Source: Cupriavidus necator (GTDB lineage Bacteria > Pseudomonadota > Gammaproteobacteria > Burkholderiales > Burkholderiaceae). Taken from it: 32,000 nucleotides of DNA. The stretch lies in assembly GCF_016127575.1 (NCBI RefSeq), contig NZ_CP066020.1, forward strand, positions 330,001 through 362,000, read 5' to 3'. A program made the position numbers and the translations under genes. Shown here piece after piece: positions 6,056-32,000 of the stretch (positions within the stretch are counted from its first letter, which is position 1; each line of letters begins with the position of its first letter). Under the pieces are notes generated by a model. That model was not told the DNA's origin, did no database searches, and saw nothing but the letters and a program-made list of their open reading frames with translations.

Positions 6056-6165
6056 TCGGGGTTTCAGCGCATCTCACTATTGCACTCGCGCTTGCATTTG
6101 CTATTCTTCGCGGATGCGATGTACGCGATATCCCGCGCGCACGCATTTCTTAATCAGGTACGACT

Positions 6166-9960: not shown

Positions 9961-10041
9961 TTTTGCACTCCTGGAAAAGGACGGAGTGCGCCCCAGACGG
10001 GAAGCACCCGTCTGGGTAGAAAGAAAGAAAATGGATACTGC

Positions 10042-10065
10042 GGGGTCGATGCGTCAAGGACGCGG
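10042..10065 (-). promoter_or_regulatory. Copy a of the conserved island motif GGGTCGATGCGTC-N4-GACGCGG (written as on the plus strand)
   Basis: GGGGTCGATGCGTCAAGGACGCGG, 82 nt upstream of the minus-strand start at 9960. Confidence 0.5.
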
Positions 10066-10137
10066 AGAAAACCGGGTTTCGGCAGCCTCTAGGGCTGTCG
10101 GAACATGGCTCACATGTTCTAAGGTGTGGGCGTATCG

Positions 10138-15015: not shown

Positions 15016-15426
15016 ATGGAAAATCCTCCCATCTTCAGCGTGCTGCGTGCCGGCATGAGCATCCACGGCGACATTGTTTCGGACCATGGCTTCACTTGCC
15101 TGGCGCTGGTCACCGGCAACATTGGCGCTTCCCGGGGCCTATTGCATATCGCGGCAGGCGGTGTAGTGCACGGCAACGTCGATGGCGAGCACGTCATTGT
15201 GGACGGTGTGGTCGAAGGCGATGTCGTCGGTCGGACCTCTTTGCTGATCAACGGCCGAGTGAAGGGCCGGATCATCTACGCGGGCACTATCCGGCTGGGA
15301 CCGAATGCCGCCCTGGACGGCACCATCACACGCATTCAGGCGGTCGGCTATGCACCATCCCCACAAAAGGAGGGGGTGGCCGTCACTGACTCTGCTACCG
15401 AAGCGGTGGAGCCTGCGAGCAGTTGA
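15016..15426 (+). CDS. Bactofilin-family (polymer-forming, beta-helical) protein
   Basis: Repetitive G-x-[IV]-x-G-x-[IV] windings: SIHGDIVSDHG...VTGNIGASRGLLHIAAGGVVHGNVDGEHVIVDGVVEGDVVGRTSLLINGRVKGRIIY. Confidence 0.75.
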   Translation: MENPPIFSVLRAGMSIHGDIVSDHGFTCLALVTGNIGASRGLLHIAAGGVVHGNVDGEHVIVDGVVEGDVVGRTSLLINGRVKGRIIYAGTIRLGPNAALDGTITRIQAVGYAPSPQKEGVAVTDSATEAVEPASS

Positions 15427-17588: not shown

Positions 17589-19145
17589 TCATGCGGCGAG
17601 CGCCACGGGCACGGCGACATGCGCCAGGCGAGCGCGCGCATAGTCCAGCGTGCCGTCCTTGGCGCGCAGCGGTCGGGAAGCCCGCTTTACTGGATCGTGG
17701 ATCAGGTAACGTCTGGCACTACCGCGGGGCTCGTCGATGAGCTGCGAGAAGCCAGCGTCAATGCAAAAGTCGACGTACTCGCGTCCGCTCATCACCTGGC
17801 CGGTCTCGAGACGGTACTTGACCGCCTCGGCCTGGCGCATTGCATCAGCCAGTTCACGCTCGGCGCGCTTCTGCGCTTTCTCGATGACCTCGTGGGCCTC
17901 CCATTCGGCCTGTTCGGCTTCCGAGAATCCACACAGTTCAAACAGCCGGCGTCGGCGAGTCATCGCTGAACATTGGAGAACGTCGACACCGATCTCTTCA
18001 CGCAGGGCGCGCTTCGAATCCGTGTTCCAGTCCTTCGGGCCGTCAAAGATCTGCAGGACCGCCGCCACATTGCGCTGCATGACTGCGAGCGCAACGCGGT
18101 TCGGCCACTCATAGCCATAGGCTGCGCGGTAAGCTGCAGCGGCACAGGCCTGGCGATCGAACTCTCGCTGGCTGATTCTCCGCGATTCCCGCTCGGCCTT
18201 GGCCTTGTCCATGCTCTCCTGGAACTGCCGTTGGCTGATCAACGCGTGAATCCGCGCAGCCAGGTTCGTCACCGGCTGCGCGTTCTCCGCCGTCGGCGGC
18301 TTGGGCGTCGGGATCGTCCGCGGTGGCAGGATGCCAGCCACAAACAGAGCGTCGTCGACCTCCACGTCACAGCCGTCGTGCGGCACATGGCGGAGTGCGG
18401 CGAGCAGCTTGCCGACATTGCGCGTCGTGATCGTGAGCTTCTCGGCACGCGTGGTCCGGCAAAGCGCTTGCAACACGCTGGCCGACAATGCCCCCCGTAG
18501 CGCGGGTACCTCGATCAGGGGTTGCATCCAGAGGTCATGGCGGCCGTGGTGCGGGTTGTCGCGGTAGGTATTGACGATGCAGTTTCGAACCTTCTCGCCA
18601 CGCATCAGCGCATAGGCAACGTGCACCTCATGGCGGGCATTGGGGCTCGCATCCGGTGCATACAACGGCCCGTTGATGCCGTAGCCGAATCTGCGCACGA
18701 ACTCACCACAAACAAACTCAGCGATGTCGAACGCTCCCTTCTCCTCAAAAAGGTCTGCTGTCTGGAAGAGCGGTCCCGCATCGCCTTGAGACATGTCGAT
18801 GGCTTCCGCGGGGAAGTACGCCAGGCGGCCGGCAGCGACCACGGCGCCCCAGGAGGCGCGGCTCATCTCGTGCGGGCGCAGGACTTTTCCACCCACGCGC
18901 ACAATGAACCGATCCACTTCGTCGAGGATCATGGTCAGGATCGCGCGCCGGGTGCCCGTCGGGCGCACCGCAAAATTGCCGGACGCAAGGCGCACGACCG
19001 GGATCGCCCCGCGCTCGATGTGCCGAACGGAGATGTCTTCGACACGCGGCAGCGCGCGGCCGTCACGGTCATCGTTCAAAAGCTGCAGCACGCCGGCGAG
19101 CGACGTGCGATTCTCGGCCTGTTGGCCGATGTGGACAACGTACAT
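17589..19145 (-). CDS. Hypothetical protein (518 aa)
   Basis: AGGAG lies 6 nt upstream of ATG 19145 (MYVVHIGQQ...). GC3 bias throughout. No motif recognised. Confidence 0.7.
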   Translation of the reverse strand: MYVVHIGQQAENRTSLAGVLQLLNDDRDGRALPRVEDISVRHIERGAIPVVRLASGNFAVRPTGTRRAILTMILDEVDRFIVRVGGKVLRPHEMSRASWGAVVAAGRLAYFPAEAIDMSQGDAGPLFQTADLFEEKGAFDIAEFVCGEFVRRFGYGINGPLYAPDASPNARHEVHVAYALMRGEKVRNCIVNTYRDNPHHGRHDLWMQPLIEVPALRGALSASVLQALCRTTRAEKLTITTRNVGKLLAALRHVPHDGCDVEVDDALFVAGILPPRTIPTPKPPTAENAQPVTNLAARIHALISQRQFQESMDKAKAERESRRISQREFDRQACAAAAYRAAYGYEWPNRVALAVMQRNVAAVLQIFDGPKDWNTDSKRALREEIGVDVLQCSAMTRRRRLFELCGFSEAEQAEWEAHEVIEKAQKRAERELADAMRQAEAVKYRLETGQVMSGREYVDFCIDAGFSQLIDEPRGSARRYLIHDPVKRASRPLRAKDGTLDYARARLAHVAVPVALAA

Positions 19146-19209
19146 GGTGGCTCCTGGGGCGGAGCACGCCCCTTCGGGGACATGCCCCGAAAGGGTTGAA
19201 AGGATCGGA

Positions 19210-19599
19210 TCAGGCGAGCGCAGCTGCGCGGCGTACCGGGCGGCTTCGGCGAGCGACCACGCGTGCGGCAGCAACCTGCGACAACAAGTCAGGATCCGCA
19301 ATACGCCAAATTTCGCCGCGGCCAAGGCCGACCTGGTTCGACCGGCCAGTTTGGACGAACTTGCCGGTGCCCAGCAGCACAGTCTTCAGATCGGCCGGCA
19401 GGTTCCAGGCAGCCGACGCGAGAATCTCGTCCTCGGCAAGGTCGGCGTCTGGCACGTTCACCGACAGCGCGCCGTAGGGCATGCCATCGTCGGCACAGAC
19501 GAGTGAGAACGCCGCGCGCAGGTTGGTGGAATAGACACTGGCGCGCAGCAGCACGCCGGCGGGGTAGCTGGCCAGGCCAGCGCCATAGATACGGTCCAT
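19210..19599 (-). CDS. Hypothetical protein (129 aa)
   Basis: ACGGAG lies upstream of ATG 19599. The ORF is coding-like and ends 65 nt before the next start. Confidence 0.6.
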   Translation of the reverse strand: MDRIYGAGLASYPAGVLLRASVYSTNLRAAFSLVCADDGMPYGALSVNVPDADLAEDEILASAAWNLPADLKTVLLGTGKFVQTGRSNQVGLGRGEIWRIADPDLLSQVAAARVVARRSRPVRRAAALA

Positions 19600-19668
19600 C
19601 GGGAAACTCCGTTAGATGGGGAGCCGGCCCGACGGGACGACGCCCGCGTGGGTGGTTTGAAAAACAAA

Positions 19669-19700
19669 AAGCGCACCCCAAGGGATGCGCTGATGTCGGA
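19669..19700 (-). terminator. Rho-independent terminator
   Basis: The minus strand reads GCGCATCCC-TTG-GGGTGCGC (one bulged T) followed by TTTTTGTTTTT. Confidence 0.65.
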
Positions 19701-19800
19701 GCCGACGAATCGGCTCGTAGGAGAAGGGAGGCGTTCAGGCGTCGCGGTCAAGTTCCGCGATGCACGATGAAAGGCCGAATACAAATGGCCCAAACATCAC

Positions 19801-19896
19801 TTAGTCCTTGTGGACACGTCGTCCATTGCGGTCCGCCCAGAGCAGGAAAGCCGCAATGGCCCCGCCAAGAATCAGTACAAACAGGCCGAGAGTCAT
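19801..19896 (-). CDS. 31-aa single-TM micro-protein
   Basis: MTLGLFVLILGGAIAAFLLWADRNGRRVHKD*. AAGGAG lies inside the end of the upstream gene, whose stop is 2 nt before this ATG. Below the track cutoff. Confidence 0.4.
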   Translation of the reverse strand: MTLGLFVLILGGAIAAFLLWADRNGRRVHKD

Positions 19897-19898
19897 TC

Positions 19899-20369
19899 TC
19901 AGTCTCCTTTAGAAAGCACTGCGCCTACGAAGAATAGTACAACACCGATGCCGACCAGGCTCAAGACGTCCGTCACCGCGCTGAGGGTCCAAACGCGGCC
20001 CGAACCGACATAGCCCGCAGCGCCAATCACGGCTGCAGCAGAAAGCGTGTGAGCAAATCGGCCTGATTGCTGCCGCTGGTCCTTGGTCGGCGCGATGACC
20101 GCCTTCCACGCTTGCAGAAGAAACGCCTTGCGTTGGCGCCGTGCCCGATCGACGCGATAGCTACCGTTTTCCACGTGCAGTAATGGAATTCGATATCCGT
20201 CTTCGTGAGCCACGATGGCATAGCCTTCGCCTGCCCCCGTTGCGCGATTGACAAGCTCCAGCAAGCGCGCCGGCAATGTCACCATGCCGGCCGCTGGATC
20301 GTACTGGGCATGCCCATTCACCTCCTCACCAGACGTCGATGTGAAGGTCACCTTGATAAGGCTGGTCAT
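19899..20369 (-). CDS. Hypothetical membrane protein (156 aa, two C-terminal TM segments)
   Basis: Soluble N-terminal domain followed by HTLSAAAVIGAAGYVGSG and VLSLVGIGVVLFFVGAVL hydrophobic segments. Confidence 0.65.
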   Translation of the reverse strand: MTSLIKVTFTSTSGEEVNGHAQYDPAAGMVTLPARLLELVNRATGAGEGYAIVAHEDGYRIPLLHVENGSYRVDRARRQRKAFLLQAWKAVIAPTKDQRQQSGRFAHTLSAAAVIGAAGYVGSGRVWTLSAVTDVLSLVGIGVVLFFVGAVLSKGD

Positions 20370-20380
20370 GGCTTGCCCCC

Positions 20381-20764
20381 TCAGCTACGCCGCCCGGCCA
20401 CCACGCGAAGCGTGGAAACCAGATTGGCATAGCCATGGTCGGTGGCCAGCGACTCCACATTGACGGTATTGTCGCGCCCCCCGGTCAAGTCATGGCGACC
20501 GCGACAGGTTCTGTAGGACATGCGCACTCCGCCTTCCTGGCCCGGGCCGTGCTGGATCTCGACAAGCAGCGAGTCCGTATGCAAGGCGAACACGTCGACG
20601 TCGCGACGGCGCTGGCGATGCTCGCGAATTGTGTAGTCCCGCGGGCTAAGTGCCATGTCGCCGGCGAAGCGGCGCAGCACACGGCATGCGTCACGGCGAA
20701 CCGCTTGGCAGGCAGAAGAATTGGTCGACGGGTGCCGACTGAAGAATGATTTAGGAAGCTTCAT
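20381..20764 (-). CDS. Hypothetical protein (127 aa)
   Basis: Start MKLPKSFF at 20764 with TTGAGGACATC upstream, the same SD context as the lipoprotein gene. The track ORF start at 21103 was rejected because it overlaps the upstream gene and motif d. Confidence 0.6.
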   Translation of the reverse strand: MKLPKSFFSRHPSTNSSACQAVRRDACRVLRRFAGDMALSPRDYTIREHRQRRRDVDVFALHTDSLLVEIQHGPGQEGGVRMSYRTCRGRHDLTGGRDNTVNVESLATDHGYANLVSTLRVVAGRRS

Positions 20765-20846
20765 GATGTCCTCAAGAATGCGCGGGACACCCCTTCCCAA
20801 CGGGACGAGTGTCCCGCAATGGGTTGGTCCGGCTATGCCGGACAGT

Positions 20847-20870
20847 GGGTCGATGCGTCGATGACGCGGG
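20847..20870 (-). promoter_or_regulatory. Copy d of the conserved island motif
   Basis: GGGTCGATGCGTCGATGACGCGGG, preceded by CCGGCTATGCCGG. It lies 83 nt upstream of the start at 20764. Confidence 0.5.
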
Positions 20871-20940
20871 TGAAAGCGCTTGCCGAAGCCTGAAAGCTTC
20901 GGCAAGCCCTCTCGGGCTTGCGATTGGGATGGGCCTGAGG

Positions 20941-21345
20941 TCAGGCGAGATCGAAAATCTTGCTGATGGCTCGGACGGTGTCCCAAGCTTGGCGCTCGGA
21001 CAGCACCTTGCCAACAAGCAACTTCTGGGCAGTGGTGACCAGGTTGGGGGCCTCGCCGGCGTAGCCGATCCGGTCGACAAAGACCGCCCAGCCTTCCGAC
21101 CAACCGCGATGCACGGAGACGGTGAGTCGTTCACGCGCACCCAACTGTGGCCACTGGCGTGACGACTTCGGGCCGTACATGGCCTCATTGTCGTCATCCA
21201 TGAAATTGGCAGCATTGAGCCATTCCGGCTCCAGGCTTGCACTGCGCAGTTGACGACGGACGTCATCGGCGACTTCGAAGATGTACCTGCCCTTCGTTTC
21301 GATCGGATTGATGGTCAGGGGAGATGTTTCTGCAGTGTCGAACAT
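20941..21345 (-). CDS. Hypothetical protein (134 aa)
   Basis: Clean ORF with GC3 bias and an acidic patch FMDDDNEAMY. It lies 86 nt downstream of the lipoprotein gene. Confidence 0.65.
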   Translation of the reverse strand: MFDTAETSPLTINPIETKGRYIFEVADDVRRQLRSASLEPEWLNAANFMDDDNEAMYGPKSSRQWPQLGARERLTVSVHRGWSEGWAVFVDRIGYAGEAPNLVTTAQKLLVGKVLSERQAWDTVRAISKIFDLA

Positions 21346-21431
21346 GGCTGGTTGCAGTTCGCGACAGAGCCCCCACGCGGGAGGGTCCGCGCGGGGAGAA
21401 TGAAGGGAATGGGACTCCGAACCGGAGGCCG

Positions 21432-21905
21432 TTAGTGAGTGAGGCGATAGCCGCCGGCACCCGAGACGAGAAACAGCTGCTCGCCAGAGACGAACTGCTG
21501 ATCCGCATCCTGGGTCACGACGACCTGGCGGCCACTGTCCGTGCGGACAATGACTTCCACGCCATCGCGGCGGCTCAACTGGTTCGCCGCCGTCTGCGCG
21601 ATGACCGCCGAGACGGTGCCCGACAGGGCGCCGGCCAGGTAACGGCCATTGCCGTCGCCGATGATGCGCGCACCAAGCACCGCACCAACGACGGCACCGA
21701 GAACACCGGGTACGCCGGTGTGGGCCGACATAATGCCGTCCCTGTCGACAATCGTGACGGGGCGAACCCTGACGACTGTGACAGCTTCAGCGTTACTTGT
21801 GCGCAGCGCTTCCGTCGCCCGGTAGGTATTGGGCGAAGTCGGCTGAGCAGCGCAGCCAGTGAAAACGGCGCAGCAAAGGAAAAGCAGGAAGAATCGCTTG
21901 ATCAT
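21432..21905 (-). CDS. Lipoprotein with a glycine-zipper (SlyB / 17-kDa-antigen-like) domain
   Basis: MIKRFFLLFLCCAVFTGC contains a lipobox. GVPGVLGAVVGAVLGARIIGDGNGRYLAGALSG is a glycine zipper. GAGG lies 7 nt upstream of ATG 21905. Confidence 0.75.
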   Translation of the reverse strand: MIKRFFLLFLCCAVFTGCAAQPTSPNTYRATEALRTSNAEAVTVVRVRPVTIVDRDGIMSAHTGVPGVLGAVVGAVLGARIIGDGNGRYLAGALSGTVSAVIAQTAANQLSRRDGVEVIVRTDSGRQVVVTQDADQQFVSGEQLFLVSGAGGYRLTH

Positions 21906-21995
21906 GATGGCCTCAACGAAAATGGGGCCAACATGCCCACGGGCAGGAAGGCCCGTAGGTGGGGAAAAAAGAGATGTCCGGCTATACAACCGGAA

Positions 21996-22018
21996 GTGTC
22001 GATGCGTCGGAGACGCGG
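21996..22018 (-). promoter_or_regulatory. Copy e of the conserved island motif
   Basis: GTGTCGATGCGTCGGAGACGCGG, preceded by CCGGCTATACAACCGG. It lies 91 nt upstream of the start at 21905. Confidence 0.5.
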
Positions 22019-22110
22019 TAGGTGCACCTATGTTAGCAGTGTCGAGCGCGTTTGTGGAGTCGTTCAATCCGGCGCAGCCTACTTACCGAAGCGCCGAATG
22101 CGGCTTCCGG

Positions 22111-22437
22111 TCAGCCGCATTCGGCGAGACGCCAACACCAACTGTCGCCGATCGCATAAAGAATCAGCAATGCCTCGCCAACGCGATACGGCCGTCCCTG
22201 GATGGTTACCGCACCGTGCTCTTCGGAAAGCAGGAATGACGAATCACTCGCTACAAACTCAAGGGTTGGCATCGATTTGCATAGTTGCTGCGCTGATGCC
22301 AGCGTAAACAATGGCACCACGAAGCCGTTCCAACTGACACCGTTCCAGAAGGCATCGATTGCGAAGTCGTCGGGTAGCCAGTCGCCGGCTACCCTAACGG
22401 GTCGGTATTTAGAGGCAAAGGCATGAGGATCTTGCAT
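22111..22437 (-). CDS. Hypothetical protein (108 aa)
   Basis: TGGAG lies upstream of ATG 22437. The ORF is coding-like. Its stop lies in the loop of a 12-bp hairpin. Confidence 0.6.
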   Translation of the reverse strand: MQDPHAFASKYRPVRVAGDWLPDDFAIDAFWNGVSWNGFVVPLFTLASAQQLCKSMPTLEFVASDSSFLLSEEHGAVTIQGRPYRVGEALLILYAIGDSWCWRLAECG

Positions 22438-22488
22438 AGTGTGTACTCCAATTCTTCCGGAAGGCAGCTACCTGGGCTGTGTTCCGGC

Positions 22489-22508
22489 GGGTCGATGATA
22501 GGTGCGGG
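22489..22508 (-). promoter_or_regulatory. Degenerate copy of the island motif (left part only)
   Basis: GGGTCGATGATAGGTGCGGG keeps GGGTCGATG and the terminal CGGG but lacks the GCGTC/GACGC dyad. It lies 52 nt upstream of the start at 22437. Confidence 0.25.
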
Positions 22509-22542
22509 CCGAACGCCACGTGGGGCGCCGCTGCAATGAATC

Positions 22543-22578
22543 CAAAAAAAATGCCATCCCCAAAACTTCGGGGACGGC
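22543..22578 (-). terminator. Rho-independent terminator after the ThiF-like gene
   Basis: The minus strand reads GCCGTCCCC-GAAGTTTT-GGGGATGGC (one G-U pair) followed by ATTTTTTTT. Confidence 0.6.
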
Positions 22579-22582
22579 GGGT

Positions 22583-23386
22583 TCAAGCGGCATGGCGAGA
22601 GGCGCGGCTCGCGCGCTGCTTCGGTTCGGGCAGGTGATACCCGAATCGCGCCCAGGCCTGCGGGTCAACCGGCAGTGGATTCGTACGCCCCACTGCCAAA
22701 TTCACGAACGCGCCGCAGTACTTCAGCGTCCCCGTGCGAAACAGCGTCCAAAGCAAGTTGTAGGCCTGCACCGCGATCGCCTGGTTGATCACCAGCGACT
22801 GCTTCTGCAGCGCCTCTGCCATCGAACACGACGGCGCAGTGTCGGCCTTGTCCCCTTTCGGGTCCAGCAGCTCGGGGAAAAGGTCGCCGACATGGGGCAA
22901 GCGCTGCGCCGCCTTGCCGCGCACTTGGCCGAGAATCACCTGACCACTGTCCGACTCGTTGCCGCAGTCAAGATAGTAGCCACCTGTGCCACGCTTCATC
23001 GCTCCAAGGATCGCCTTGCGGGCAGCCCGCGTGTCAACACAGCCAATTGCCATGTCGCAGACGAAGCGATCGCCGCTCGCAACCCGACGCGTGTGCGCTT
23101 CCCAGCGCGTCCCCATCAGGTTGTTCAGTCGGTTCACGATCAGCGTGGCCTTGTGCTGGCCCACATCGACGGGATAGAAGCCCTGACGACCGATATTGGT
23201 CTCGCTGACGGTATCGTCATCGTAGACCGTGCAATCGATGCCGCCCGGGTGGCCCAGCTCCAGCATGGCGTGATGCAGCCGCGCCAGATTGGGTAGCAAG
23301 GCGCTGCCGGTGCCGCCGGCACCTACCACTACCACCTTCCAGGCACGCGTCGTCATGTTCGCGGGAATGCGATGCTCGAAGGTCAT
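22583..23386 (-). CDS. PRTRC system ThiF-family (E1-like adenylyltransferase) protein
   Basis: VVVVGAGGTGS (GxGxxG), YDDDTVSETNIGRQ, CVDTRAARK. The ATG at 23386 overlaps the stop of the JAB gene (ATGA). Confidence 0.9.
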   Translation of the reverse strand: MTFEHRIPANMTTRAWKVVVVGAGGTGSALLPNLARLHHAMLELGHPGGIDCTVYDDDTVSETNIGRQGFYPVDVGQHKATLIVNRLNNLMGTRWEAHTRRVASGDRFVCDMAIGCVDTRAARKAILGAMKRGTGGYYLDCGNESDSGQVILGQVRGKAAQRLPHVGDLFPELLDPKGDKADTAPSCSMAEALQKQSLVINQAIAVQAYNLLWTLFRTGTLKYCGAFVNLAVGRTNPLPVDPQAWARFGYHLPEPKQRASRASRHAA

Positions 23387-24024
23387 GCCAGCACCTCCTC
23401 GCGCGCCGCGGCGTACCAGTCGGCTGGAACCTTCTCCACGTTCTCGAAAATGCCCTTGGCGCACAGCCGCAGTGCCATCGAAGGCGTTGCCGCGTCGCAG
23501 TTGCCCATCACGAACGCAAACTTCACGTCGTGGCAGTCGTCGTCATCGTCGGTAGACGAGAAGAACGCCGGGTGACGCCCATGCGAGTGGCAGTCGACCA
23601 CCAGCACATCGTCTGCAGCCAGTGGGGGACGCTCGTACTTCAGGTGCCCGCCGCTGTGCTCCAGGATCTGCACTGGCACCAGCCGGAACGAAGCGCTATC
23701 GGCATTCCAGACCACCCACCCACCAGTTTCCTTGGGATGCGCGGCACGCGCCATCGCGGCGAACTCCCCGATCAACTGAGCCGGGATGCGCCCGCAGCGC
23801 AGATCGGTTGTCTCTGCCGCCTCGCCGTATGGAATGGCCGTGCGATGCTGGAAAGCGCCGAGGTGGCGGACGACGCTCAGCCAGGGCCGGACGATCTCAA
23901 GGAACACGCCGTTAGCCGCAATGAGCAGGCGCTCGCCGGACCGTTCCATGGGCGCGAGCGCTCCGAAGCGCGGCACCATCACAGAAGGAAAGGATTGCTG
24001 CAGGGCAGCGTCAGCAGGATTCAT
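23383..24024 (-). CDS. PRTRC system protein A (JAB/MPN metalloprotease-like)
   Basis: DCHSHGRHPAFFSSTDDDD fits the JAMM motif H-x-H-x7-S-x2-D. ATGA overlaps occur at both ends. Confidence 0.85.
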   Translation of the reverse strand: MNPADAALQQSFPSVMVPRFGALAPMERSGERLLIAANGVFLEIVRPWLSVVRHLGAFQHRTAIPYGEAAETTDLRCGRIPAQLIGEFAAMARAAHPKETGGWVVWNADSASFRLVPVQILEHSGGHLKYERPPLAADDVLVVDCHSHGRHPAFFSSTDDDDDCHDVKFAFVMGNCDAATPSMALRLCAKGIFENVEKVPADWYAAAREEVLA

Positions 24025-24746
24025 GATGACTTTTCCAGTTTGCCGGCGATCAGATCCGCCAGCTTGAGTTTCATGGGAACGAGGACTTGCTTGGGGTAGT
24101 CGGGAAACTGCCCGTCAAGCATGTCCTTCCAGAAGGCATAGGCGCCGCGCTCGTACGTCACGCGCTTGCTGCCATGGTTGGGATGGGTAAATGCCGAGTT
24201 GAAGAATCCGGCTTCCCAACCTGCGATTGATGCCACGTCGATCTGCTTGGGCACATGGGCTGAGCCGATGCAGATCTTCCCGTGGTCCCAGGTATTGAAG
24301 TAAGGCGGCTCGCAAAGCTCGCTGGCCGGTACGGGGCGCTCGTCCCCTCTCAGGGCGAAGACCCGGAACCCGGACTGCGATGCCTGGAACACAAGCGCGG
24401 GGTGTGGCACAACCGCACTGCGCTTCCCGAACTCCTTGCAGTCGAAGAAAACGCGACGCTGCGCCGCGGGACACCACCATGTCACCGCGGTGGGGCTGAT
24501 CGACAGCACGTTGGGTGTGAGGAACTCGCCGTTGGGGAGCGAGGCCTCCGCCACTTCACGGACTGCGTGGATCAACGCCATACGGTTCAGCGGTGTGCCG
24601 GCACCAATGACGGGGCGACCCGAGCCATCCGGCTCGATGCGATGGGCCGTGGCGTAGGAGAACTGCCCTGGCCCTTGCCCATAAAGCAAAATGGCCCCTT
24701 GCAGGGCCACGTCGTGCGACCGCGTAGCGGTCAGGATTTCGGCCAT
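24021..24746 (-). CDS. PRTRC system protein B (prokaryotic E2/UBC-like)
   Basis: EPPYFNTWDHGKICIGS resembles the E2 HPN...C active-site region. AGGAGGG SD. Position between F and A as in the PRTRC cassette. Confidence 0.8.
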   Translation of the reverse strand: MAEILTATRSHDVALQGAILLYGQGPGQFSYATAHRIEPDGSGRPVIGAGTPLNRMALIHAVREVAEASLPNGEFLTPNVLSISPTAVTWWCPAAQRRVFFDCKEFGKRSAVVPHPALVFQASQSGFRVFALRGDERPVPASELCEPPYFNTWDHGKICIGSAHVPKQIDVASIAGWEAGFFNSAFTHPNHGSKRVTYERGAYAFWKDMLDGQFPDYPKQVLVPMKLKLADLIAGKLEKSS

Positions 24747-24755
24747 ATGGCCCTC

Positions 24756-25895
24756 CTAGTCAGAAATGAGTGTGAGAACGCGATCGAGCGCCGCGATGGT
24801 CTTCAGCATGCCGTCCAGATCCCTGAACTGCTGCCGGATCGCCTTTGGCTCGCCCGCAATGGGTATGAAGCATTGGAACAGCGTTGCATCGCCGCTGCAG
24901 TTGAGCCCGTCATACAGATCGTCGAGTACCTGCGTGACGTAGTCGGACTGCCTATAGGCGAGCGTGGCCGCGGAGTATGCCGGCTCGGCCCACTGGGATC
25001 CTGCAACGGCCGACCTATCGCCCTGCCTCTTAAGGGTCAGGTTCAGTTCGGCCAGCGCGACACATAGATCCTTGACCCAGCCATTGTTGGCGCGAGACAG
25101 CTCATAGAGCTTCCTGCTACCGAATGCTCGCAGCTTGCTCGACGCCGGATAGCCGTGGCAGGCCGGTGGCAGTACGTCATCCGGTGCGAGTTCCGGCCTA
25201 ACGACAGACGGCAGGTATCGCTCGATGTCGCCTTCATCCATGTCACAACTCTCGGCAAGGAATTCCCTCGCGTTCTTGTCGTCGGCAAGGGTACTGTCGT
25301 ACTCCCAGTGCCACCGCGCAAACAGGTCAAGCAGGGCTTCAGGGGTGCGCAGGAAGAGCGACTTCGCGCTAGCCGTATTGATCAGCGACATCGCGGTGTA
25401 GAGAAGGTGCGGGTGCACCGCTCGCAGCGCGCTCGCGCGCGCTTCACCAATGAAGTAGACGTCGTCGCCGGGCATGTCGATGGCGAGATACAGCGGCGCC
25501 TCGATCTCGTCCTCCCAGCCGAATTGCATCAACTGGTCCTTTGCAGCGCCTATGTCGATCAGCGAGAAGCCGAAACTCAGGCGCTTGCACTCAGGTGTGC
25601 GGGCGCGCAGCCACGCAAACATGGCCTGGGCGAATGCATCGCCCGCACCCGTTGGAGTCGAAACATCGTTCGCACGCAGCACACCGGTGGCAAACTGTGC
25701 ACGGACAAGGCCCAAAACATCGACCTCATCCCCGAAGGTAAGCAGCCCGCTATTCGGAACCCCAGCAGGGATGGCCGGCAGCGTCAGAAAATCATGGGCA
25801 GGTCGACGTCGGGCAATGGGATGCTGTCGCGCAGGCGTCCATGCGGGTTGTCCTGCATCGACCTCTGGAACAAACGACCGAGGATCGAACAGCAT
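24756..25895 (-). CDS. PRTRC system protein F-like (379 aa, unknown function)
   Basis: Assigned by position and size in the cassette. GAGGAG SD upstream of ATG 25895. No catalytic motif recognised. Confidence 0.65.
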   Translation of the reverse strand: MLFDPRSFVPEVDAGQPAWTPARQHPIARRRPAHDFLTLPAIPAGVPNSGLLTFGDEVDVLGLVRAQFATGVLRANDVSTPTGAGDAFAQAMFAWLRARTPECKRLSFGFSLIDIGAAKDQLMQFGWEDEIEAPLYLAIDMPGDDVYFIGEARASALRAVHPHLLYTAMSLINTASAKSLFLRTPEALLDLFARWHWEYDSTLADDKNAREFLAESCDMDEGDIERYLPSVVRPELAPDDVLPPACHGYPASSKLRAFGSRKLYELSRANNGWVKDLCVALAELNLTLKRQGDRSAVAGSQWAEPAYSAATLAYRQSDYVTQVLDDLYDGLNCSGDATLFQCFIPIAGEPKAIRQQFRDLDGMLKTIAALDRVLTLISD

Positions 25896-25915
25896 TGTTG
25901 AGTCTCCTCAGAATG

Positions 25916-25942
25916 TGAAAAAACCGCCCTTTCGGGCGGTTT
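25916..25942 (-). terminator. Intra-operon rho-independent terminator or attenuator between the Ubl gene and protein F
   Basis: The minus strand reads AACCGCCC-GAAA-GGGCGGTT followed by TTTTT. It lies in the 90-nt gap between 25986 and 25895. Confidence 0.55.
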
Positions 25943-25985
25943 CATGGTGGTAGCGAACTGGCCGGTTGCCAGTGCTTTCATCAGG

Positions 25986-26210
25986 TCAGATTCGCGCATG
26001 CGCGCCCTTGGCGCCGGCGGCGCGAACGAAGGTGAAGCTCGCAACCTCGCCCTTGACCTCCGGACCATCCACCGAGGCGGTGGTCAGCTCGGGATACTGA
26101 GCCGAATAGATGTCGCGCACCTGCTCTGGCGTGAACGCCGGACCAGGGTCCACAAAGGACATGCCGTTGTAGGAGAACTGACGCAGCAACTTCTTGATTT
26201 CGAGTGCCAT
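25986..26210 (-). CDS. PRTRC system protein C (74 aa, ubiquitin-like size)
   Basis: AAGGAGA SD, start MALEIKK at 26210. The track ORF start at 26264 was rejected because it overlaps protein E. Sequence ...YPELTTASVDGPEVKGEVASFTFVRAAGAKGAHARI. Confidence 0.75.
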   Translation of the reverse strand: MALEIKKLLRQFSYNGMSFVDPGPAFTPEQVRDIYSAQYPELTTASVDGPEVKGEVASFTFVRAAGAKGAHARI

Positions 26211-26220
26211 GTCGGTCTCC

Positions 26221-26661
26221 TTAGAGCAGGGATGCCAGATCAGTACCGACCGAGGACGGCGCACTCACCTTCGCGTCCGCTTCGGTCTGCGCGGCATCAT
26301 CGGCATCCGCATCATCATCCGAAGCGCTTTCGCTTTCCGACGCCGATGGCGATGCGGCCTTAGCCAGCGCCTTCGTCGCATTGGACGATTGCGTGGACTT
26401 GGCGGCATCGAGAATCGACTTCGTTGCCTCGGCCTGCTCGGCCAGCGAGCGATGCGATTCGCTCACACTCGTGACGGCCGCCGCGAACTCGGCATCCAGG
26501 TCCGCAGGCGTTGCCGACAGCACCAGAGGCGACGTGAGCGCGGCATCCGCGGCATTCTTGATGACTGGCAGCACGACAACGGACATGACATCGCCATGCA
26601 TGGACAGCGTAACAACAACCTTGTCGCTCGCGCGGACGAGCGGGACCAATTCAGTGAACAT
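26221..26661 (-). CDS. PRTRC system protein E-like (146 aa, acidic Ser/Asp/Ala-rich tail)
   Basis: Assigned by position between the ParB-like and Ubl genes. N-terminal globular part, then ...SPSASESESASDDDADADDAAQTEADA. Confidence 0.65.
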   Translation of the reverse strand: MFTELVPLVRASDKVVVTLSMHGDVMSVVVLPVIKNAADAALTSPLVLSATPADLDAEFAAAVTSVSESHRSLAEQAEATKSILDAAKSTQSSNATKALAKAASPSASESESASDDDADADDAAQTEADAKVSAPSSVGTDLASLL

Positions 26662-26735
26662 GGTGAATCCTTTTGGGGAAATGGGGTGAGGCAGGGCGCC
26701 GGATGGCGCCCTGCGTTAAGGCAGAGTGAAAGTGA

Positions 26736-28418
26736 TCAGAAGCCCAGGACCTTGGGCACCTTGCCGGTGTAGTCAAAGCCATCGACAGCCAGCAGGCCGG
26801 CAATGACTTCGGGTTTCGGCTTGTTGAACAGCTTGGCAAAGCTATCGCCCAGCGCCTTGCGAATGCCCAGTTCGTCCGCGAGAACCTTCATCTCGGACTT
26901 GGTGAGCATCTCCAGGAAGTATTGCGACTTCTGCAGGCTCCAGTGCGCGCGCAGATCGAGCTTGTGGAAGCGGCACAGTTCCTTGAGGTTCGGCACCTCC
27001 ATGCCGTCAATTGCCGCGACAGTCAACGCCACGGTCAGTTGCTGGCGCTTGCCAGCGTCCAGTGCATGCACCGCCGTCAGGCAGCCTTGCAGCGTCGATG
27101 ACGCCTTCTGCTCCGTCAGCTTCTCGAAGAACTTGCTCATCTTGTCGCCGCCGATGTTGCGTGCGAGGCCATTGAGGGCGATCGAGATCAGGTAGGCATT
27201 GGCCTGGTCCGCGTTCTGCGCGACTTCCTTGCGCAGCGCCTTGCGCCAGAGATCGGTCCGGTAGTTCTTGACCTTCTCCGACTCGCTGATCGAGGTGACA
27301 GGCTTCTCGGCTGACGCCGAAGACTTGTCCCCGCCCTTCGCAGCCGCGGGCTTGCCGGAACCGGCCGGGCCCCCTGCAGGCTTTTGCGCCGCCGCTTTCG
27401 CGTCGCGCTCCGCCTTCAGGCGTGCCGCCACCTTCCGCTGGTTGCAGACGGTGTCGAAGCACTGACCACTGTAGACCTTACCCAGTGAATCGGGCAGTCC
27501 GCTGACGGCGGCACCGAAGTTCTCGCAACCGTGGCACGCCTTGGCTTGCTCCTCCCCCACCCCAGTCGAGCCATCGACCTGAAGCTGGATGCGGGTGTGG
27601 TTGTCGCCGGGGCGTACGATGCGAATGACCTGGTACTCGTCCTTGAGCCCGTAGCTGATGCTGTCGAGCTTGCGGTCGGTCTTCTCGGTATAGCAGGCGC
27701 GGTTGGTGCAGTTGCCCGTGGCAATTGCCTCGCCGAACATCTCCGTCTGCAACGAAGAGTTGTGCTGGCAGCTTGCGCATTCCGTCTTGTCGAAGATGGC
27801 TTTCTCCAGGCTGCACGCGGCAGCCTCGATGGTCTTCTTCAACTCGGATACGGACTTCTTCTCGCTCACGATGACCGGCAGGAGCTTGTCCTGCGTGGCC
27901 TTGGCGAGCGTCGCCAGCAATTCAGCGTGGCCGAGCTGGATGACACGCGTGTTGAGCGCATTCAGGACCGATTCGCTGCAGTTCATGAGAGCCAGGCGCT
28001 TGTCCAGCGTCGAGCGCGACCAGCCAAGGAGGCGGGCCGCTTCGTCGCGGTCGCCCTGCAACTGGCCTGCGATCCTCGATGCTGCCACGGCCTCCTCGGA
28101 AGGCGCCATGTCCGCACGCTGCACGTTTTCAATCAACGCCATGCGGTCGGCCTCGGCGTCGGTGATCACCTTGAGCGTGACGGGGATATGGTATCCCTCG
28201 CCATGCGCGGCCAGTGCGGCGCGATAGCGGCGTTCACCGGCAACGACTTCATACTCATGCCCATTTTCATCGCCCTCAACGGGACGGATAAGAATCGGCT
28301 GAAGGATACCGTCCACGCGAATGGATTCGGTCAGTTCAGCCATTTGGACAGGATCAAAGTACTTGCGCGGGTTACGGCCAGGACGGATCTTGCCAATGAC
28401 AACGGTGGGGTTTTGCAT
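26736..28418 (-). CDS. PRTRC system ParB-family protein (560 aa)
   Basis: ParB/Srx N-terminal domain: GKIRPGRNPRKYFDP, ILQPILIRP, VVAGERRYRAALAA. GGAGAA SD before ATG 28418. The track ORF start at 28520 was rejected. Confidence 0.9.
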   Translation of the reverse strand: MQNPTVVIGKIRPGRNPRKYFDPVQMAELTESIRVDGILQPILIRPVEGDENGHEYEVVAGERRYRAALAAHGEGYHIPVTLKVITDAEADRMALIENVQRADMAPSEEAVAASRIAGQLQGDRDEAARLLGWSRSTLDKRLALMNCSESVLNALNTRVIQLGHAELLATLAKATQDKLLPVIVSEKKSVSELKKTIEAAACSLEKAIFDKTECASCQHNSSLQTEMFGEAIATGNCTNRACYTEKTDRKLDSISYGLKDEYQVIRIVRPGDNHTRIQLQVDGSTGVGEEQAKACHGCENFGAAVSGLPDSLGKVYSGQCFDTVCNQRKVAARLKAERDAKAAAQKPAGGPAGSGKPAAAKGGDKSSASAEKPVTSISESEKVKNYRTDLWRKALRKEVAQNADQANAYLISIALNGLARNIGGDKMSKFFEKLTEQKASSTLQGCLTAVHALDAGKRQQLTVALTVAAIDGMEVPNLKELCRFHKLDLRAHWSLQKSQYFLEMLTKSEMKVLADELGIRKALGDSFAKLFNKPKPEVIAGLLAVDGFDYTGKVPKVLGF

Positions 28419-28547
28419 TTTGGGTTCTCCGAGACGGAATGGGAACCCGTTGCCGCACCGGGAACGTGGTTCCCGATGGGGTGGAAGGATGGACTGCCAG
28501 GCTATGCCGGCGACCACCATACTGCAGAAGCTGGCACCAAAAGGTGC

Positions 28548-28570
28548 GGGGTCGATGCGTCTGGGACGCG
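28548..28570 (-). promoter_or_regulatory. Copy f of the conserved island motif
   Basis: GGGGTCGATGCGTCTGGGACGCG, 130 nt upstream of the ParB-like start. It lies downstream (in the minus sense) of the 28742-28772 terminator. Confidence 0.5.
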
Positions 28571-28741
28571 AAGTGTGGTGTGAGGATACTCGAATTTCGT
28601 CTCGACGAGCAAGATTTGATGGCCAAGATGGCTGCGCATCCGATGCGGCGATGTGGTGCTAAGCCTGGAGCGTGCCCCGGACACCGCCTCAATCCAATCT
28701 GATGCGGCCCAGCACGCTACGGCCACAGGCTTCGCGTGCAT

Positions 28742-28772
28742 AAAAAAAAATGGCCCCCAACGAGTGGGGGCC
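28742..28772 (-). terminator. Rho-independent terminator after the helicase / 83-aa operon
   Basis: The minus strand reads GGCCCCCA-CTCGT-TGGGGGCC followed by ATTTTTTTTT. A further 9-bp hairpin lies at 28802-28826. Confidence 0.65.
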
Positions 28773-28871
28773 TGAGGGAACGGGTACAACTTGAGAGGCA
28801 ATTCCGTAGCGGGGCGCGCTACGGAACTGATCTTAAAGTGATTTAAGCCAGAGGCATCCCCCGAAAGTTGG

Positions 28872-29123
28872 TCAATTTCGACTGCTTTTCGCTGGAATGG
28901 GTCCAATCGGCCTGGCCAGCACGCTGGTCACCGCGCCAATAACCTGCCAGCCGTCCATCTCGCTCTCGGCGATGCCATGAACGAGACGGTCCAGGCAGAC
29001 GACTTCCAACCCGTCCGCCTCGATCGTGCCGAGAATGTGGGCAACGGTCGTGCCACGCGTGCCGCGTCGCTTGATCGTTGCCAGCCCCTCGCCAATGGCG
29101 ATGCTGCACTCGTTTGCTTTCAT
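28872..29123 (-). CDS. Hypothetical protein (83 aa), translationally coupled to the helicase gene
   Basis: The ATG at 29123 overlaps the helicase stop (ATGA). The ORF is coding-like. Confidence 0.55.
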   Translation of the reverse strand: MKANECSIAIGEGLATIKRRGTRGTTVAHILGTIEADGLEVVCLDRLVHGIAESEMDGWQVIGAVTSVLARPIGPIPAKSSRN

Positions 29124-32000
29124 GCTGCCTCCTTGAGCAGTTCACGTTGATCCCGGGCCTTGCGACCGTGCAGCTTCGCGAGATCGTCGACAAATTCGTC
29201 CAACAGCGTGTCCATGTGCAGGAACGCCTCGTCTTCCAGTTCCGGTGTCGCCCAGTCCAGGCCCGCCTCCATGGCATCCCGTTTGTGCGCCACCATCTGG
29301 TCCTGGTAGATATCTAGACTCCCGGGCAGATGGAAATAGACCACCTTTAACTGCCCCTTCCGGTTCCAGCGCAGCGCGCGCCGCATCGCCTGGTACTCGA
29401 TGCGCCACGTCCACGAACGGTCGTAGAAGAGCACGTAATCGGCATTGGGCAGGTTGTAGCCCGCCCGGCCCGACGCCTTGGTGCACAACAGGCCCGTGGC
29501 AGTGCCGCCGACGAAACGCTTGTCCTTGTCGGCCACGCGCTTCGCAATCGGAATGCCGCCGTGAAACGGCACCGTCTCTACCCCCTTCGCCTTCAACTGG
29601 CTGGCGATGAGGTTAATGACGCCCGGATTCTCGGCAAACAGGATGGCCTGCTTGCCCTCCCCGGCGATGGCTTCCAGCCGCTCGATCACCGCGCGCTGCT
29701 TGCTGGTCAGCTGCCCCAGCGCTCCGACACCATCCACCCCATGCTGCGGGTAGTTGGCGGCGAAGTGCACGGCACGGATGCGGGCCAGAATCGCGATCAG
29801 GTTGTTGGACTTCCCTTCCACCTTTCGCACGTCCCGGTACCACTGGGCGAACTCGTCGGCCGTCCGCAGATAGAACGACAAGTGCGCAGGATCCCAGTCC
29901 GTCTCGACCACCTCGACCGCGGGCGGCGCAATGCGGATAAAGCGGGCTACATCGGGCTCGCACACCAACCGGCGCTTCACGTGCGGCGCCAGCATCTGCC
30001 GGTACCGCGGCAGGTTGCCGATCTTGGGCACTTCGCGCTTGGCCCCATCCTGCAGGCTTTCGGCAAATTCCCACGTCACCCATTCCAGCACCACAAAGTC
30101 GCTGCGGAAACGGTCAATGCCGCGCTCGGCATGCTGCACTGAAGCAAGCCAGTTCGCTTCCAGGTAGCCACGCCGGTAGCCATATGGCTGGGCCGCCGTG
30201 CCGTCACCGCCCGTGAACGCGATCAGTCCGAAGATATCGCGCGGATAGCTGGCAATCGGGCTGCCGGTCAGGATATAGCGCCGCTTCGCCGACAGCTGCC
30301 AGAGCGCGCGGCTCTGGTCGCTGGCAGGGTTGGACAGGCGCTCACCCTCATCGGCCACCAGCAGGCCGATGCGACGGCGCAGCCGGTGCGCGTACGTGAC
30401 GCGGCGCGAGGCCTGCCGGTCGACGGGCATGCGCAAGCGCTCATAGGCGATCAGATTGAGGCGGCCCAGATGCACCAGATCCTCAGGCGACTGAATTACG
30501 TGGACGTCCGATGCTGGCATGACTTGCTCCAGTTCGGCACGCATCTCGGCGATCAGGCGTGCCTCGACAACGATGAGGCCGTGCTTCACGCCGGACAGCA
30601 GGATCAGGCCCGCCGCGAGACGCGACTTGCCGCAGCCCTGCTCCCACGCGGCCACAGCACCGTTGGGCTTGAGCAGCAGCTCAACCAGGTCTTCCTGTTG
30701 GAATTGCCAGTCCAGCCACCGGTCAATGCCCAGCGCCAGCAGCCGCTTGCGCAGCCGCTCGGCCTGCCCGGGATAGCGCACGGCCATCCCCTCGTGCACG
30801 ATCTCCCACGCCTGCGCCGATTTCTCGACGCTGTAGCGGGTGGTGATCTCGTCCAACGAGACGACATAACACTTGTCCCGCACCGTGTACTGGTAGCGGC
30901 CGTCGGGCTGCCGATCGAAGCGCACCGTCTGGCCGGCCTTGATAACCGGGCCGCCCCAAACCGACGAGTCGACCAGATGCGTCTTCGTGGCCGTACCGAC
31001 GATGGTATCGGCGGCGCCTACGCCGGTCGTCCAGACCGCATGGCGCAAGGGCAACGCCTGACGCATGCTGCGACGCAGACGCTGGCGGAAGTGCTCGAGA
31101 AAGCCCGGTGCAAACTCCGGCTCACCGCCGGCAGACTTCACCATGGCAACGAGCGTCCCCAATGCCCCGATCGGATCAGGCTGCACCAGATAGGCCTCCA
31201 GATCCAGCCGGCCCGTGCCTGCGTAGCGAAAGCCACGGGGCAGGCGCTGGCCCTCCAGCGACACGATGCGGCGCTCCAGCACACGATTGAGCACCATCGC
31301 CTCGACGAACCCGCACTCGAATCCGAGCACGATGCGGCGCCCGTCATGCGAGATGCGTACCCGTTTCTGCGAGGTCACCGGACGCGTGATAGCGGGCCCT
31401 TCGTCATCCAGCAGCTGGTGGCCAAGCCGCGGTTCGCCATAGAGACGATCCTCGGCCTGCAGTTCCAGCGCAGGCAGCGGCTCGGCCAAATCCGACACGG
31501 CTTGCCGCACGAAATCGCGGGCGCGCATGCGGTAGCGCGCGAATACCGCAATGGAGGTGCGCACCTCCGCCCCTTCCTCCCGGAAGGCGCTCGTTGGCAG
31601 GTCGAACACGCCGACCACACGCCTTGCCGCATCGGCGAAGGGTTCGCCGTGGCCGATCACCAGGCCGGCGAACTTGTCGACGAAGGTTGTGGGCAGCAGT
31701 GCCACCACGATCTGCGCCGCGTCGAGTGCCTGGTACAGCCCATATTCATGACTCAGGGCGCTGGTGTTGGCCCCAAATCGGCCCCAGGTAGTGCAGTCGT
31801 AGGGCTTCAGGTGCGGCGACTCCAGATGGATGGAGAACGGCGGGTTAATGAGGGCAACATCGAAGCGCGTCGGATGGATTTCCTCCATGCCGGCGTGCCG
31901 AAAGCTGCCGTCAAAGCCAGCAGCCTCGATGGCATGCTGCACCGCCTCGATCGTTGGTTGGTGCACGTCTACGCCATAGAGGCTGTGCGTGCCCGGGTCC
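29120..32000 (-). CDS. N6-adenine DNA methyltransferase / SNF2-family helicase fusion protein; the 5' end lies beyond the right edge
   Basis: NPPF methyltransferase motif IV near the N-terminus. The frame remains open upstream of the track start, which is an internal GTG. Helicase motifs: EQGCGKSRLAAGL (I), LVADEGERL (II), ILTGSPI (III), and a C-terminal YNLPNADYVLFYDRSW...QAMRRALR. Confidence 0.9.
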   Translation of the reverse strand, partial: DPGTHSLYGVDVHQPTIEAVQHAIEAAGFDGSFRHAGMEEIHPTRFDVALINPPFSIHLESPHLKPYDCTTWGRFGANTSALSHEYGLYQALDAAQIVVALLPTTFVDKFAGLVIGHGEPFADAARRVVGVFDLPTSAFREEGAEVRTSIAVFARYRMRARDFVRQAVSDLAEPLPALELQAEDRLYGEPRLGHQLLDDEGPAITRPVTSQKRVRISHDGRRIVLGFECGFVEAMVLNRVLERRIVSLEGQRLPRGFRYAGTGRLDLEAYLVQPDPIGALGTLVAMVKSAGGEPEFAPGFLEHFRQRLRRSMRQALPLRHAVWTTGVGAADTIVGTATKTHLVDSSVWGGPVIKAGQTVRFDRQPDGRYQYTVRDKCYVVSLDEITTRYSVEKSAQAWEIVHEGMAVRYPGQAERLRKRLLALGIDRWLDWQFQQEDLVELLLKPNGAVAAWEQGCGKSRLAAGLILLSGVKHGLIVVEARLIAEMRAELEQVMPASDVHVIQSPEDLVHLGRLNLIAYERLRMPVDRQASRRVTYAHRLRRRIGLLVADEGERLSNPASDQSRALWQLSAKRRYILTGSPIASYPRDIFGLIAFTGGDGTAAQPYGYRRGYLEANWLASVQHAERGIDRFRSDFVVLEWVTWEFAESLQDGAKREVPKIGNLPRYRQMLAPHVKRRLVCEPDVARFIRIAPPAVEVVETDWDPAHLSFYLRTADEFAQWYRDVRKVEGKSNNLIAILARIRAVHFAANYPQHGVDGVGALGQLTSKQRAVIERLEAIAGEGKQAILFAENPGVINLIASQLKAKGVETVPFHGGIPIAKRVADKDKRFVGGTATGLLCTKASGRAGYNLPNADYVLFYDRSWTWRIEYQAMRRALRWNRKGQLKVVYFHLPGSLDIYQDQMVAHKRDAMEAGLDWATPELEDEAFLHMDTLLDEFVDDLAKLHGRKARDQRELLKEAA

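Follow-up and report, generated by a model that had tools for sequence, protein, structure and literature searches.

The PRTRC cassette of the Cupriavidus necator megaplasmid pHG1 as a candidate ubiquitin-like tagging pathway of mobile elements

What does a set of seven genes that joins a ParB-like protein to a probable ubiquitin-like conjugation machinery do, and does it serve the host cell or the element that carries it? We addressed this question for the ParB-Related, ThiF-Related Cassette (PRTRC) in a 32,000-nucleotide stretch of Cupriavidus necator DNA (contig NZ_CP066020.1, positions 330,001 to 362,000; hereafter, the window), where the cassette occupies positions 22583-28418 of the minus strand in the order ParB-E-C-F-B-A-ThiF. 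This 5.9-kb stretch is 100% identical to the C. necator H16 megaplasmid pHG1 (NC_005241.1, 321439-327376; window position 1 corresponds to pHG1 298857). On balance, the probable answer is that the cassette is a self-contained tagging pathway of the conjugative megaplasmid, consisting of an E1-like enzyme, an E2-like enzyme and a ubiquitin-like protein (Ubl), and that it serves the mobile element and not the housekeeping of the host. We infer the chemical steps, the targets and the biological role of this pathway from gene identity, motifs, invariant residues, the covariation of the JAB gene with the tail of protein C, synteny and genomic context.

The seven genes, with window coordinates and the basis of each assignment, are the following:

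26736-28418, minus strand: PRTRC ParB-family protein, 560 aa (TIGR03734 at 802 bits, Pfam, alignment of 17 diverse members)
26221-26661, minus strand: PRTRC protein E, 146 aa (TIGR03741, alignments and conservation profile)
25986-26210, minus strand: PRTRC protein C, 74 aa, small Ubl candidate (TIGR03738 and PF14454, Prok_Ub)
24756-25895, minus strand: PRTRC protein F, 379 aa (NCBIfam and Pfam alpha-hel2)
24021-24746, minus strand: PRTRC protein B, 241 aa, E2-like (NCBIfam and Pfam Prok-E2_D)
23383-24024, minus strand: PRTRC protein A, 213 aa, JAB-N (DUF2016) and JAMM metallopeptidase (NCBIfam and Pfam)
22583-23386, minus strand: PRTRC ThiF-family E1-like adenylyltransferase, 267 aa (NCBIfam and Pfam ThiF)

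Membership was judged with the NCBIfam/TIGRFAMs models TIGR03734-03742, each protein being required to exceed the curated cut-off of its own model. All seven scored far above it, in bits (cut-off in brackets): ParB 802 (279), E 110 (38), C 118 (46), F 363 (58), B 296 (131), A 248 (102) and ThiF 356 (145). The Pfam matches agree (ParB_N and HTH_ParB; PRTRC_E; Prok_Ub; alpha-hel2; Prok-E2_D; DUF2016 and Prok-JAB; ThiF, in gene order), the genes are co-directional and clustered on a mobile element, and RefSeq already labels all seven on pHG1 as 'PRTRC system' proteins. On these sequence grounds, the family assignment is certain. An initial annotation, made from the sequence alone, had proposed this identity together with seven co-directional genes, a C protein of ubiquitin size and several motifs. 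The HMM search that it had called for bears the identity out, the minus-strand open reading frames (ORFs) lie where it had placed them, the C frame encodes 74 aa, and the motifs GAGGTGS, DDDTVSETNIGRQ, HSHGRHPAFFSSTD and YFN..GKICIG are all found in the translations. It had also called the cassette complete, which is correct for the seven genes, whereas PRTRC protein D lies about 18 kb away, beyond the window. The base composition of the window is ordinary, and the plus-strand ORFs that overlie the cassette are read as chance products because the G+C content is 62% and they have no family support.

The cassette is no discovery in itself: it is already known and annotated, and the type was described in 2006. 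It does offer a tractable way into a bacterial ubiquitin-like system that is still uncharacterised. Iyer, Burroughs and Aravind (2006; section 14, row 6d) listed for type 6d an E1-like protein, a JAB protein extended by a further N-terminal domain, a small protein whose C-terminal glycine is conserved and whose fold was predicted to be a beta-grasp, an alpha-helical protein, and an E2-like protein in which a Cys and, further downstream, a His are conserved. The initial annotation's placement of the cassette among the predicted E1/E2/JAB/Ubl operons agrees with that account. The window cassette has the same seven families in the canonical order and is a member of the type, with D unlinked on pHG1.

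How such a pathway might work is considered first from proteins C and A. For comparison, one genome per species was scanned, which yielded 80 Burkholderiaceae loci, and 13 distant loci were inspected in addition. Gly69 is the last residue of the core of C (...RAAGAKG), after which comes a five-residue tail, AHARI; R10 and Gly69 are the sole invariant residues among 12 diverse members. The same core end occurs in 76 Burkholderiaceae loci, with a tail of 3-13 aa in 75 and no tail in one, and five of the six distant cassettes that contain a JAB gene have tails of 13 to about 70 aa. The JAB gene is not universal, however: six plasmid-borne cassettes lack it (four from Pseudomonas, one from Alteromonas and one from Deinococcus, representing at least three independent lineages), and in all six, C stops exactly at the Gly (DKG, DRG, SNG, TKG, DRG, AKG). 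Thus, JAB-containing cassettes number 80 with a tailed and 2 with a tailless C, compared to 0 and 6 for JAB-less cassettes (Fisher p = 5e-8, uncorrected for phylogeny). Because C is tailed where JAB is present and ends at the Gly where it is absent, A probably matures pro-C by exposing this invariant glycine. Protein A keeps the JAMM residues (Glu, HSH and S..D, in the arrangement E..HSH..S..D), C matches Prok_Ub at 1.6e-27, and threading of the C-type protein to the beta-grasp fold was reported by Iyer et al. (2006). On Xanthomonas and Hydrogenophaga plasmids and in two phages (loci L084, L086, L087 and L093), C extends about 60-70 aa past the conserved Gly, which would be long enough for a separate released polypeptide.

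The same comparison bears on a speculation of Iyer et al. (2006), namely, that the ligase (E1 plus E2) and the protease (JAB) are opposed to each other as an addiction module. Apart from that proposal, toxin-antitoxin genes adjoin the cassette on some plasmids, in line with the idea. Conversely, the six JAB-less cassettes compensate with a pre-matured C, so that A fits a maturase better than an antidote, and interrupted cassettes persist. We consider an addiction module scarcely probable.

The next question is whether the remaining enzymes could use the exposed glycine. A profile of ThiF built from 12 diverse members matches E1 adenylation domains in the PDB, most strongly UBA3 (1.4e-9), Uba1 (2.5e-9) and ThiF (1.9e-7), and more weakly UBA5 (6.7e-7), MoeB (6.9e-7) and Cap2 (1.2e-5). 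The protein carries the motifs GAGGTGS and DDDTVSETNIGRQ and has the nucleotide-binding and Arg-finger motifs of an E1 adenylation domain, and the nucleotide-binding residues as well as Ser186-Cys187 are invariant among 12-20 diverse members. In B, which matches Pfam Prok-E2_D at 2.9e-59, Cys159 does not vary among 45 close and 21 diverse sequences, from Deinococcus to Burkholderia, as expected of an E2 active-site cysteine. It lies within EPPYFNTWDxGxICIGS, whereas His188, in SAFTHPNHG, is invariant within Burkholderiaceae. The spacing around the cysteine is identical to that of UbcH5B (N151-x4-G-x-I-C159 in B; N77-x4-G-x-I-C85 in UbcH5B), and the sole pairing found by hhalign between the two was a 12-residue active-site segment with a non-significant E-value of 0.13. 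Among the cassette components, the generic E1 adenylation domain is the only one with a sequence relative of solved structure; phmmer searches of B, C, F and A against PDB sequences yielded nothing meaningful.

The small E1 raises the alternative that C serves, rather than as a protein tag, as a sulfur carrier or as a precursor in the modification of small molecules or peptides (ThiS/MoaD-like or MccB-like). As in the ThiF-ThiS and MoeB-MoaD pairs, an E1 of homodimer-type size is combined with a small carrier that ends in Gly; the E1 is of ThiF/MoeB size and also matches the structures of ThiF, MoeB and MccB, and C ends in a single Gly, not in Gly-Gly. Unlike those pairs, PRTRC always includes a separate E2-like protein with an invariant Cys, as well as a JAB protein, and it has no linked genes for rhodanese, sulfurtransferase or biosynthesis. 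Nor is a place on plasmids and phages in line with cofactor synthesis, and we regard a sulfur-carrier function as very unlikely.

For the tagging pathway that we favour, the following sequence of events can be proposed: (i) the JAMM peptidase A would trim the variable tail (here AHARI) from pro-C, leaving Gly69 exposed; (ii) the ThiF-like E1 would adenylate Gly69, and may also carry C on Cys187; (iii) C would then be transferred to Cys159 of the E2-like B; (iv) B would attach C to targets, with E and F either choosing the targets or being targets themselves; and (v) ParB, where present, would place the reaction on the DNA of the element. The likely role of such tagging would be in early establishment, in DNA metabolism, or in conflict with host defences or rival elements.

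Which of the genes does this pathway require? The order ParB-E-C-F-B-A-ThiF is kept in about 74 of the 80 Burkholderiaceae loci. Related cassettes with 77-93% DNA identity are those of pMOL28 (C. metallidurans) and of the megaplasmids of C. taiwanensis and C. oxalaticus; these Cupriavidus plasmids share a common backbone (PMC2864759). In PLSDB, 341 plasmids carry a homologue of B (141 are from Pseudomonas), and four phage records have one as well. The initial annotation had described the link to ParB as obligate, which at least one phage contradicts: Ralstonia phage Dina has E-C-F-B-A-ThiF with ParB absent. Phage BgVeeders33 likewise has the E-C-F-B-A-ThiF core, its flanking ORFs being unscreened for a ParB-like protein. 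Judged by gene content, the recurrent core consists of E, C, F, B and ThiF, whereas ParB, A and D are accessory.

This distribution is relevant to a further alternative, in which the cassette is a partition module whose ParB, perhaps with the actin-like D, segregates the element, the Ubl machinery being only regulatory. The PRTRC ParB has a ParB_N domain with the GERRYRA motif and an HTH_ParB domain, followed by a conserved four-Cys cluster (CxxC...CxxxxC), beyond which lie another Cys cluster of lower conservation and a C-terminal domain; the ParB/Srx domain and the four-Cys cluster are kept in all lineages of the 17-member alignment. ParB was the only cassette protein that matched in a PHROGs search. 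Protein D (TIGR03739) is actin-like (ALP_N/ParM-type), and several papers label PRTRC a partitioning cassette. The resemblance to ParABS systems, with their CTP-dependent ParB clamps, is in the N-terminal ParB/Srx domain with its GxxR motif and in the HTH domain. Unlike ParABS, however, PRTRC has no ParA partner, and its ParB has Zn-ribbon-like Cys clusters and a long unrelated C-terminal half. No ParA gene was found in the cassette or its flanks, and a repeat search upstream of ParB found no parS-like repeat family. On pHG1, a canonical repA-parA-parB set lies at 388-393 kb (parAB at 391-393 kb), about 65 kb from the cassette; therefore, by gene content, the PRTRC ParB is not the main partition protein of the plasmid. 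The gene for D is at pHG1 345557-346555 (44119-45117 in locus L001), where it adjoins primase and ssb genes. In none of the 80 loci did D lie within 10 kb of the cassette, so that it is, as far as linkage indicates, a loosely linked accessory. Together with the cassette of phage Dina, which has kept the other six genes, these observations make a partition module quite unlikely.

What then could E and F contribute? In comparisons where B is about 57% identical, identity is 70% for ThiF, about 67% for C, 61% for A, 56% for ParB, about 42% for E and about 35% for F; by this measure, E and F are the fastest-diverging proteins of the cassette. In E, a globular region (about 100 aa) leads into a hypervariable, acidic Ala/Ser/Asp linker, and the protein ends in a conserved C-terminal tip, GTDLASLL. 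Among 71 distinct sequences, mean column identity is 0.36-0.53 in the linker compared to 0.79 in the tip ([TS][DN]LxxL[LF]), and distant members have similar hydrophobic C-terminal tips, which suggests a short docking motif. Speculatively, the tip is loosely like clamp- or SSB-type docking motifs. The predicted structure of F is confident (pLDDT 85.9, pTM 0.81), with residues 1-55 disordered and residues 60-379 forming a well-defined alpha/beta domain. Foldseek found no structural relative of this model in the PDB or BFVD, and the F profile found none among PDB sequences; as modelled, F is a new fold. Its 55 N-terminal residues contain MLFD and FLTLP motifs that are kept within Burkholderiaceae. 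Family members are few, forming 209 clusters at 50% identity among 1.84 billion representatives, and nearly all are standalone proteins of 350-390 aa.

If the cassette is a tagging pathway, its surroundings should say something about whom it serves, and they favour a role on behalf of the element, be it in establishment, in DNA metabolism or in conflict. Directly upstream on pHG1 lies a gene for a 1037-aa protein in which an N6 DNA methylase is fused to an SNF2 helicase (window 29120-32000, continuing past the window; 26538-29651 in L001), and SNF2 or helicase genes likewise flank PRTRC on Xanthomonas, Rhodanobacter, Aeromonas and Sphingopyxis plasmids. Across pHG1 and other plasmids, the neighbours include the methylase-SNF2 helicase, ssb, primase, Lar, exonuclease, SbcCD-like proteins and DUF932, with dnaN and recA added on gammaproteobacterial plasmids only. 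For example, dnaN, which encodes the beta sliding clamp, lies within a few kb of PRTRC in three gammaproteobacterial plasmid lineages (Pseudomonas, Xanthomonas and Aeromonas; loci L085, L095, L087 and L090); it was looked for beside the Burkholderiaceae cassettes and found in none. The type IV secretion system and MOBH genes of pHG1 are at 367-382 kb. In phage Dina, the core corresponds to gp07-gp02, part of a single contiguous series of leftward genes that stretches between the immunity region and the integrase. By inference from lambda, the region between the immunity region and the integrase of lambdoid phages contains early recombination and anti-host genes.

A more specific form of the tagging pathway, which we put forward only tentatively, is an establishment system of plasmids, integrative and conjugative elements and temperate phages, in which C would be conjugated to DNA-associated proteins of the host or of rival elements soon after DNA entry or induction. 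The targets may be such proteins as the replisome, SSB, the clamp or defence factors, with specificity provided by F and E, and with ParB tethering the reaction to element DNA. If this is correct, PRTRC would be the first case of a bacterial Ubl pathway that a mobile element uses in offence or establishment, as opposed to one that the host uses in defence.

The opposite assignment is that PRTRC, like Bil, defends against phages or plasmids, the Ubl disabling invader proteins and E and F acting as sensors or specificity factors. Several observations agree with this possibility. The characterised bacterial sets of E1, E2, Ubl and JAB proteins, Bil and CBASS Cap2/Cap3, act in defence; PRTRC has a sporadic distribution and is carried by mobile elements; the rapid divergence of E and F is what an arms race would lead one to expect; and genes for a CRISPR RAMP protein and a TIR protein are among the neighbours on some plasmids. 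The likeness to BilABCD extends to the combination of Ubl, E2, JAB/JAMM peptidase and E1, to a precursor that is probably processed at the C-terminus, and to the lack of a recognisable E3. Type II CBASS shares the E1 adenylation chemistry, the E2 Cys and the JAB peptidase, and Bub (6E/DUF6527) is also a sporadic E1/E2/Ubl set on mobile elements.

There are, however, differences from all three systems. The PRTRC E1 is a single 267-aa adenylation domain, whereas BilD has tandem domains and a Cys domain; PRTRC has E, F and ParB in addition; and the core of C ends in one Gly. In Cap2, E2 and E1 are fused and the protein conjugates the CD-NTase itself, whereas PRTRC has a separate E1 and E2 and a dedicated small Ubl, the ThiF-profile match to Cap2 being the weak one given above. 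Bub forms Ser/Tyr oxyesters and has no catalytic Cys, whereas B and ThiF of PRTRC keep an invariant Cys and the DUF6527 protease is absent. In PADLOC, six of the cassette proteins had no match to a defence model, and ThiF had only weak E1-E2 matches (best 4.4e-6). Furthermore, the cassette of phage Dina is inside the contiguous early-left string, not at a moron or cargo site, and the steady partners of PRTRC are DNA-metabolism and anti-restriction genes, not defence islands. We therefore hold a defence function to be rather unlikely.

It should be noted that several observations weigh against a tagging pathway that serves the element. First, the PDB alignments of the ThiF profile end ahead of Cys187, so that this residue may be the crossover-loop or catalytic cysteine of the E1 by position only. 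Second, the best Foldseek match of the B model in the PDB had an E-value of 0.33, with UBE2S and UbcH7 among the non-significant matches, and the loop after Cys159 has a pLDDT below 50; because of this, the UBC fold of B is taken from the Pfam family assignment. The AlphaFold2 model as a whole (pLDDT 77.8, pTM 0.62) has a helix, a beta-meander and two C-terminal helices. The scattered E2 matches from Foldseek, none of them significant, were not counted as confirmation of a UBC fold. Third, hhalign of the C profile to ubiquitin and ThiS gave no informative match. Fourth, among 20 diverse members of F, no residue is invariant across lineages, save an xLP motif in the N-terminal tail. This suggests that F is an adaptor or a target rather than an enzyme, although its role is guesswork; the enzymatic function suggested by Iyer et al. 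(2006) was dropped as the default for the same reason. Fifth, in some relatives, mobile elements have inserted into the cassette. A tyrosine-recombinase element between F and B clips the N-terminus of B in Ralstonia pickettii (L004, 4600-10000), and, independently, an IS21 element separates F and B in P. rhodesiae (L095, 3497-5787). Thus, to judge from these loci, the cassette is dispensable at least there and can be lost without killing the element. One further relative (L049) has an insertion between B and A. Sixth, defence systems also ride on mobile elements, so that the genomic context is compatible with a defence role. Finally, a full-text literature search found PRTRC in genome-annotation contexts only and no functional work, in keeping with the initial annotation, which knew of no defined target or phenotype.

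The literature gives little further guidance. A May 2026 paper states that PRTRC "has not been studied", and it is absent from the papers on the Bil, Bub and CBASS systems. The acronym is spelled out in a 2025 preprint (10.64898/2025.12.11.693706) as 'Pilus Retraction/Contraction system'; neither this label nor that of a partitioning cassette is based on experiments. CBASS Cap2/3, Bil and Bub are three bacterial E1/E2/Ubl operon families that were recently shown to conjugate proteins, and PRTRC (type 6d) is a remaining family of this kind. It is common on large plasmids, several of the 141 Pseudomonas records being clinical P. aeruginosa isolates, and it also occurs in temperate phages; if it aids the establishment or competition of these elements, it bears on the spread of plasmids. 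To the earlier descriptions, our comparison adds the definition of the core (E, C, F, B and ThiF), the evidence that A matures pro-C, candidate catalytic residues, the new fold of the F model and the terminal motif of E. C. necator H16 is genetically tractable, and handles for experiments are Gly69 of C, Cys159 of B, Cys187 of ThiF, the active site of A, the tip of E and the N-terminal motif of F.

Are the seven genes expressed together? Three features flank or precede them:

28752-28772, minus strand: terminator-like hairpin of 8 pairs (7 G-C) followed by T9, which ends the upstream unit; 5' boundary of the cassette
28419-28751, minus strand: leader or promoter region, with a GGAGAA ribosome-binding site at 28430-28425
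22553-22578, minus strand: terminator-like hairpin of 11 pairs followed by T8, 5 nt past the ThiF stop codon; 3' boundary

Because the two hairpins bracket exactly the seven genes, these are probably one transcription unit. The GGAGAA site is 6 nt ahead of the ParB ATG (28418), and the ATGA overlaps that the initial annotation had noted are both present in the DNA, the start of A lying on the stop of B and the start of ThiF on the stop of A. A scan of the leader region found no sigma-70 consensus promoter, and an Rfam search of window 20000-32000 found no RNA family. Between the upstream 83-aa ORF and the 5' hairpin, there is a 13-nt inverted repeat, CAATTCCGTAGCG / CGCTACGGAACTG, with 92% complementarity (window 28799-28829).

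On the ThiF side of the cassette, a block of small genes (window 17589-21905 and 16161-17129) travels together with it in 56-64 of the 80 Burkholderiaceae loci. The block encodes a glycine-zipper lipoprotein, proteins of 174, 156, 134 and 518 aa, and often DUF932. Between this block and ThiF there is always a variable slot of 1-6 kb, which elsewhere contains, for example, a PAPS-reductase-like or SPFH-domain gene. Backbone genes in the window (7133-11598, 15016-15426 and 5123-6609) comprise an SbcC/SbcD-like nuclease pair, a bactofilin-like gene, a tyrosine recombinase and HU, and a second integrase-HU pair lies beyond the window.

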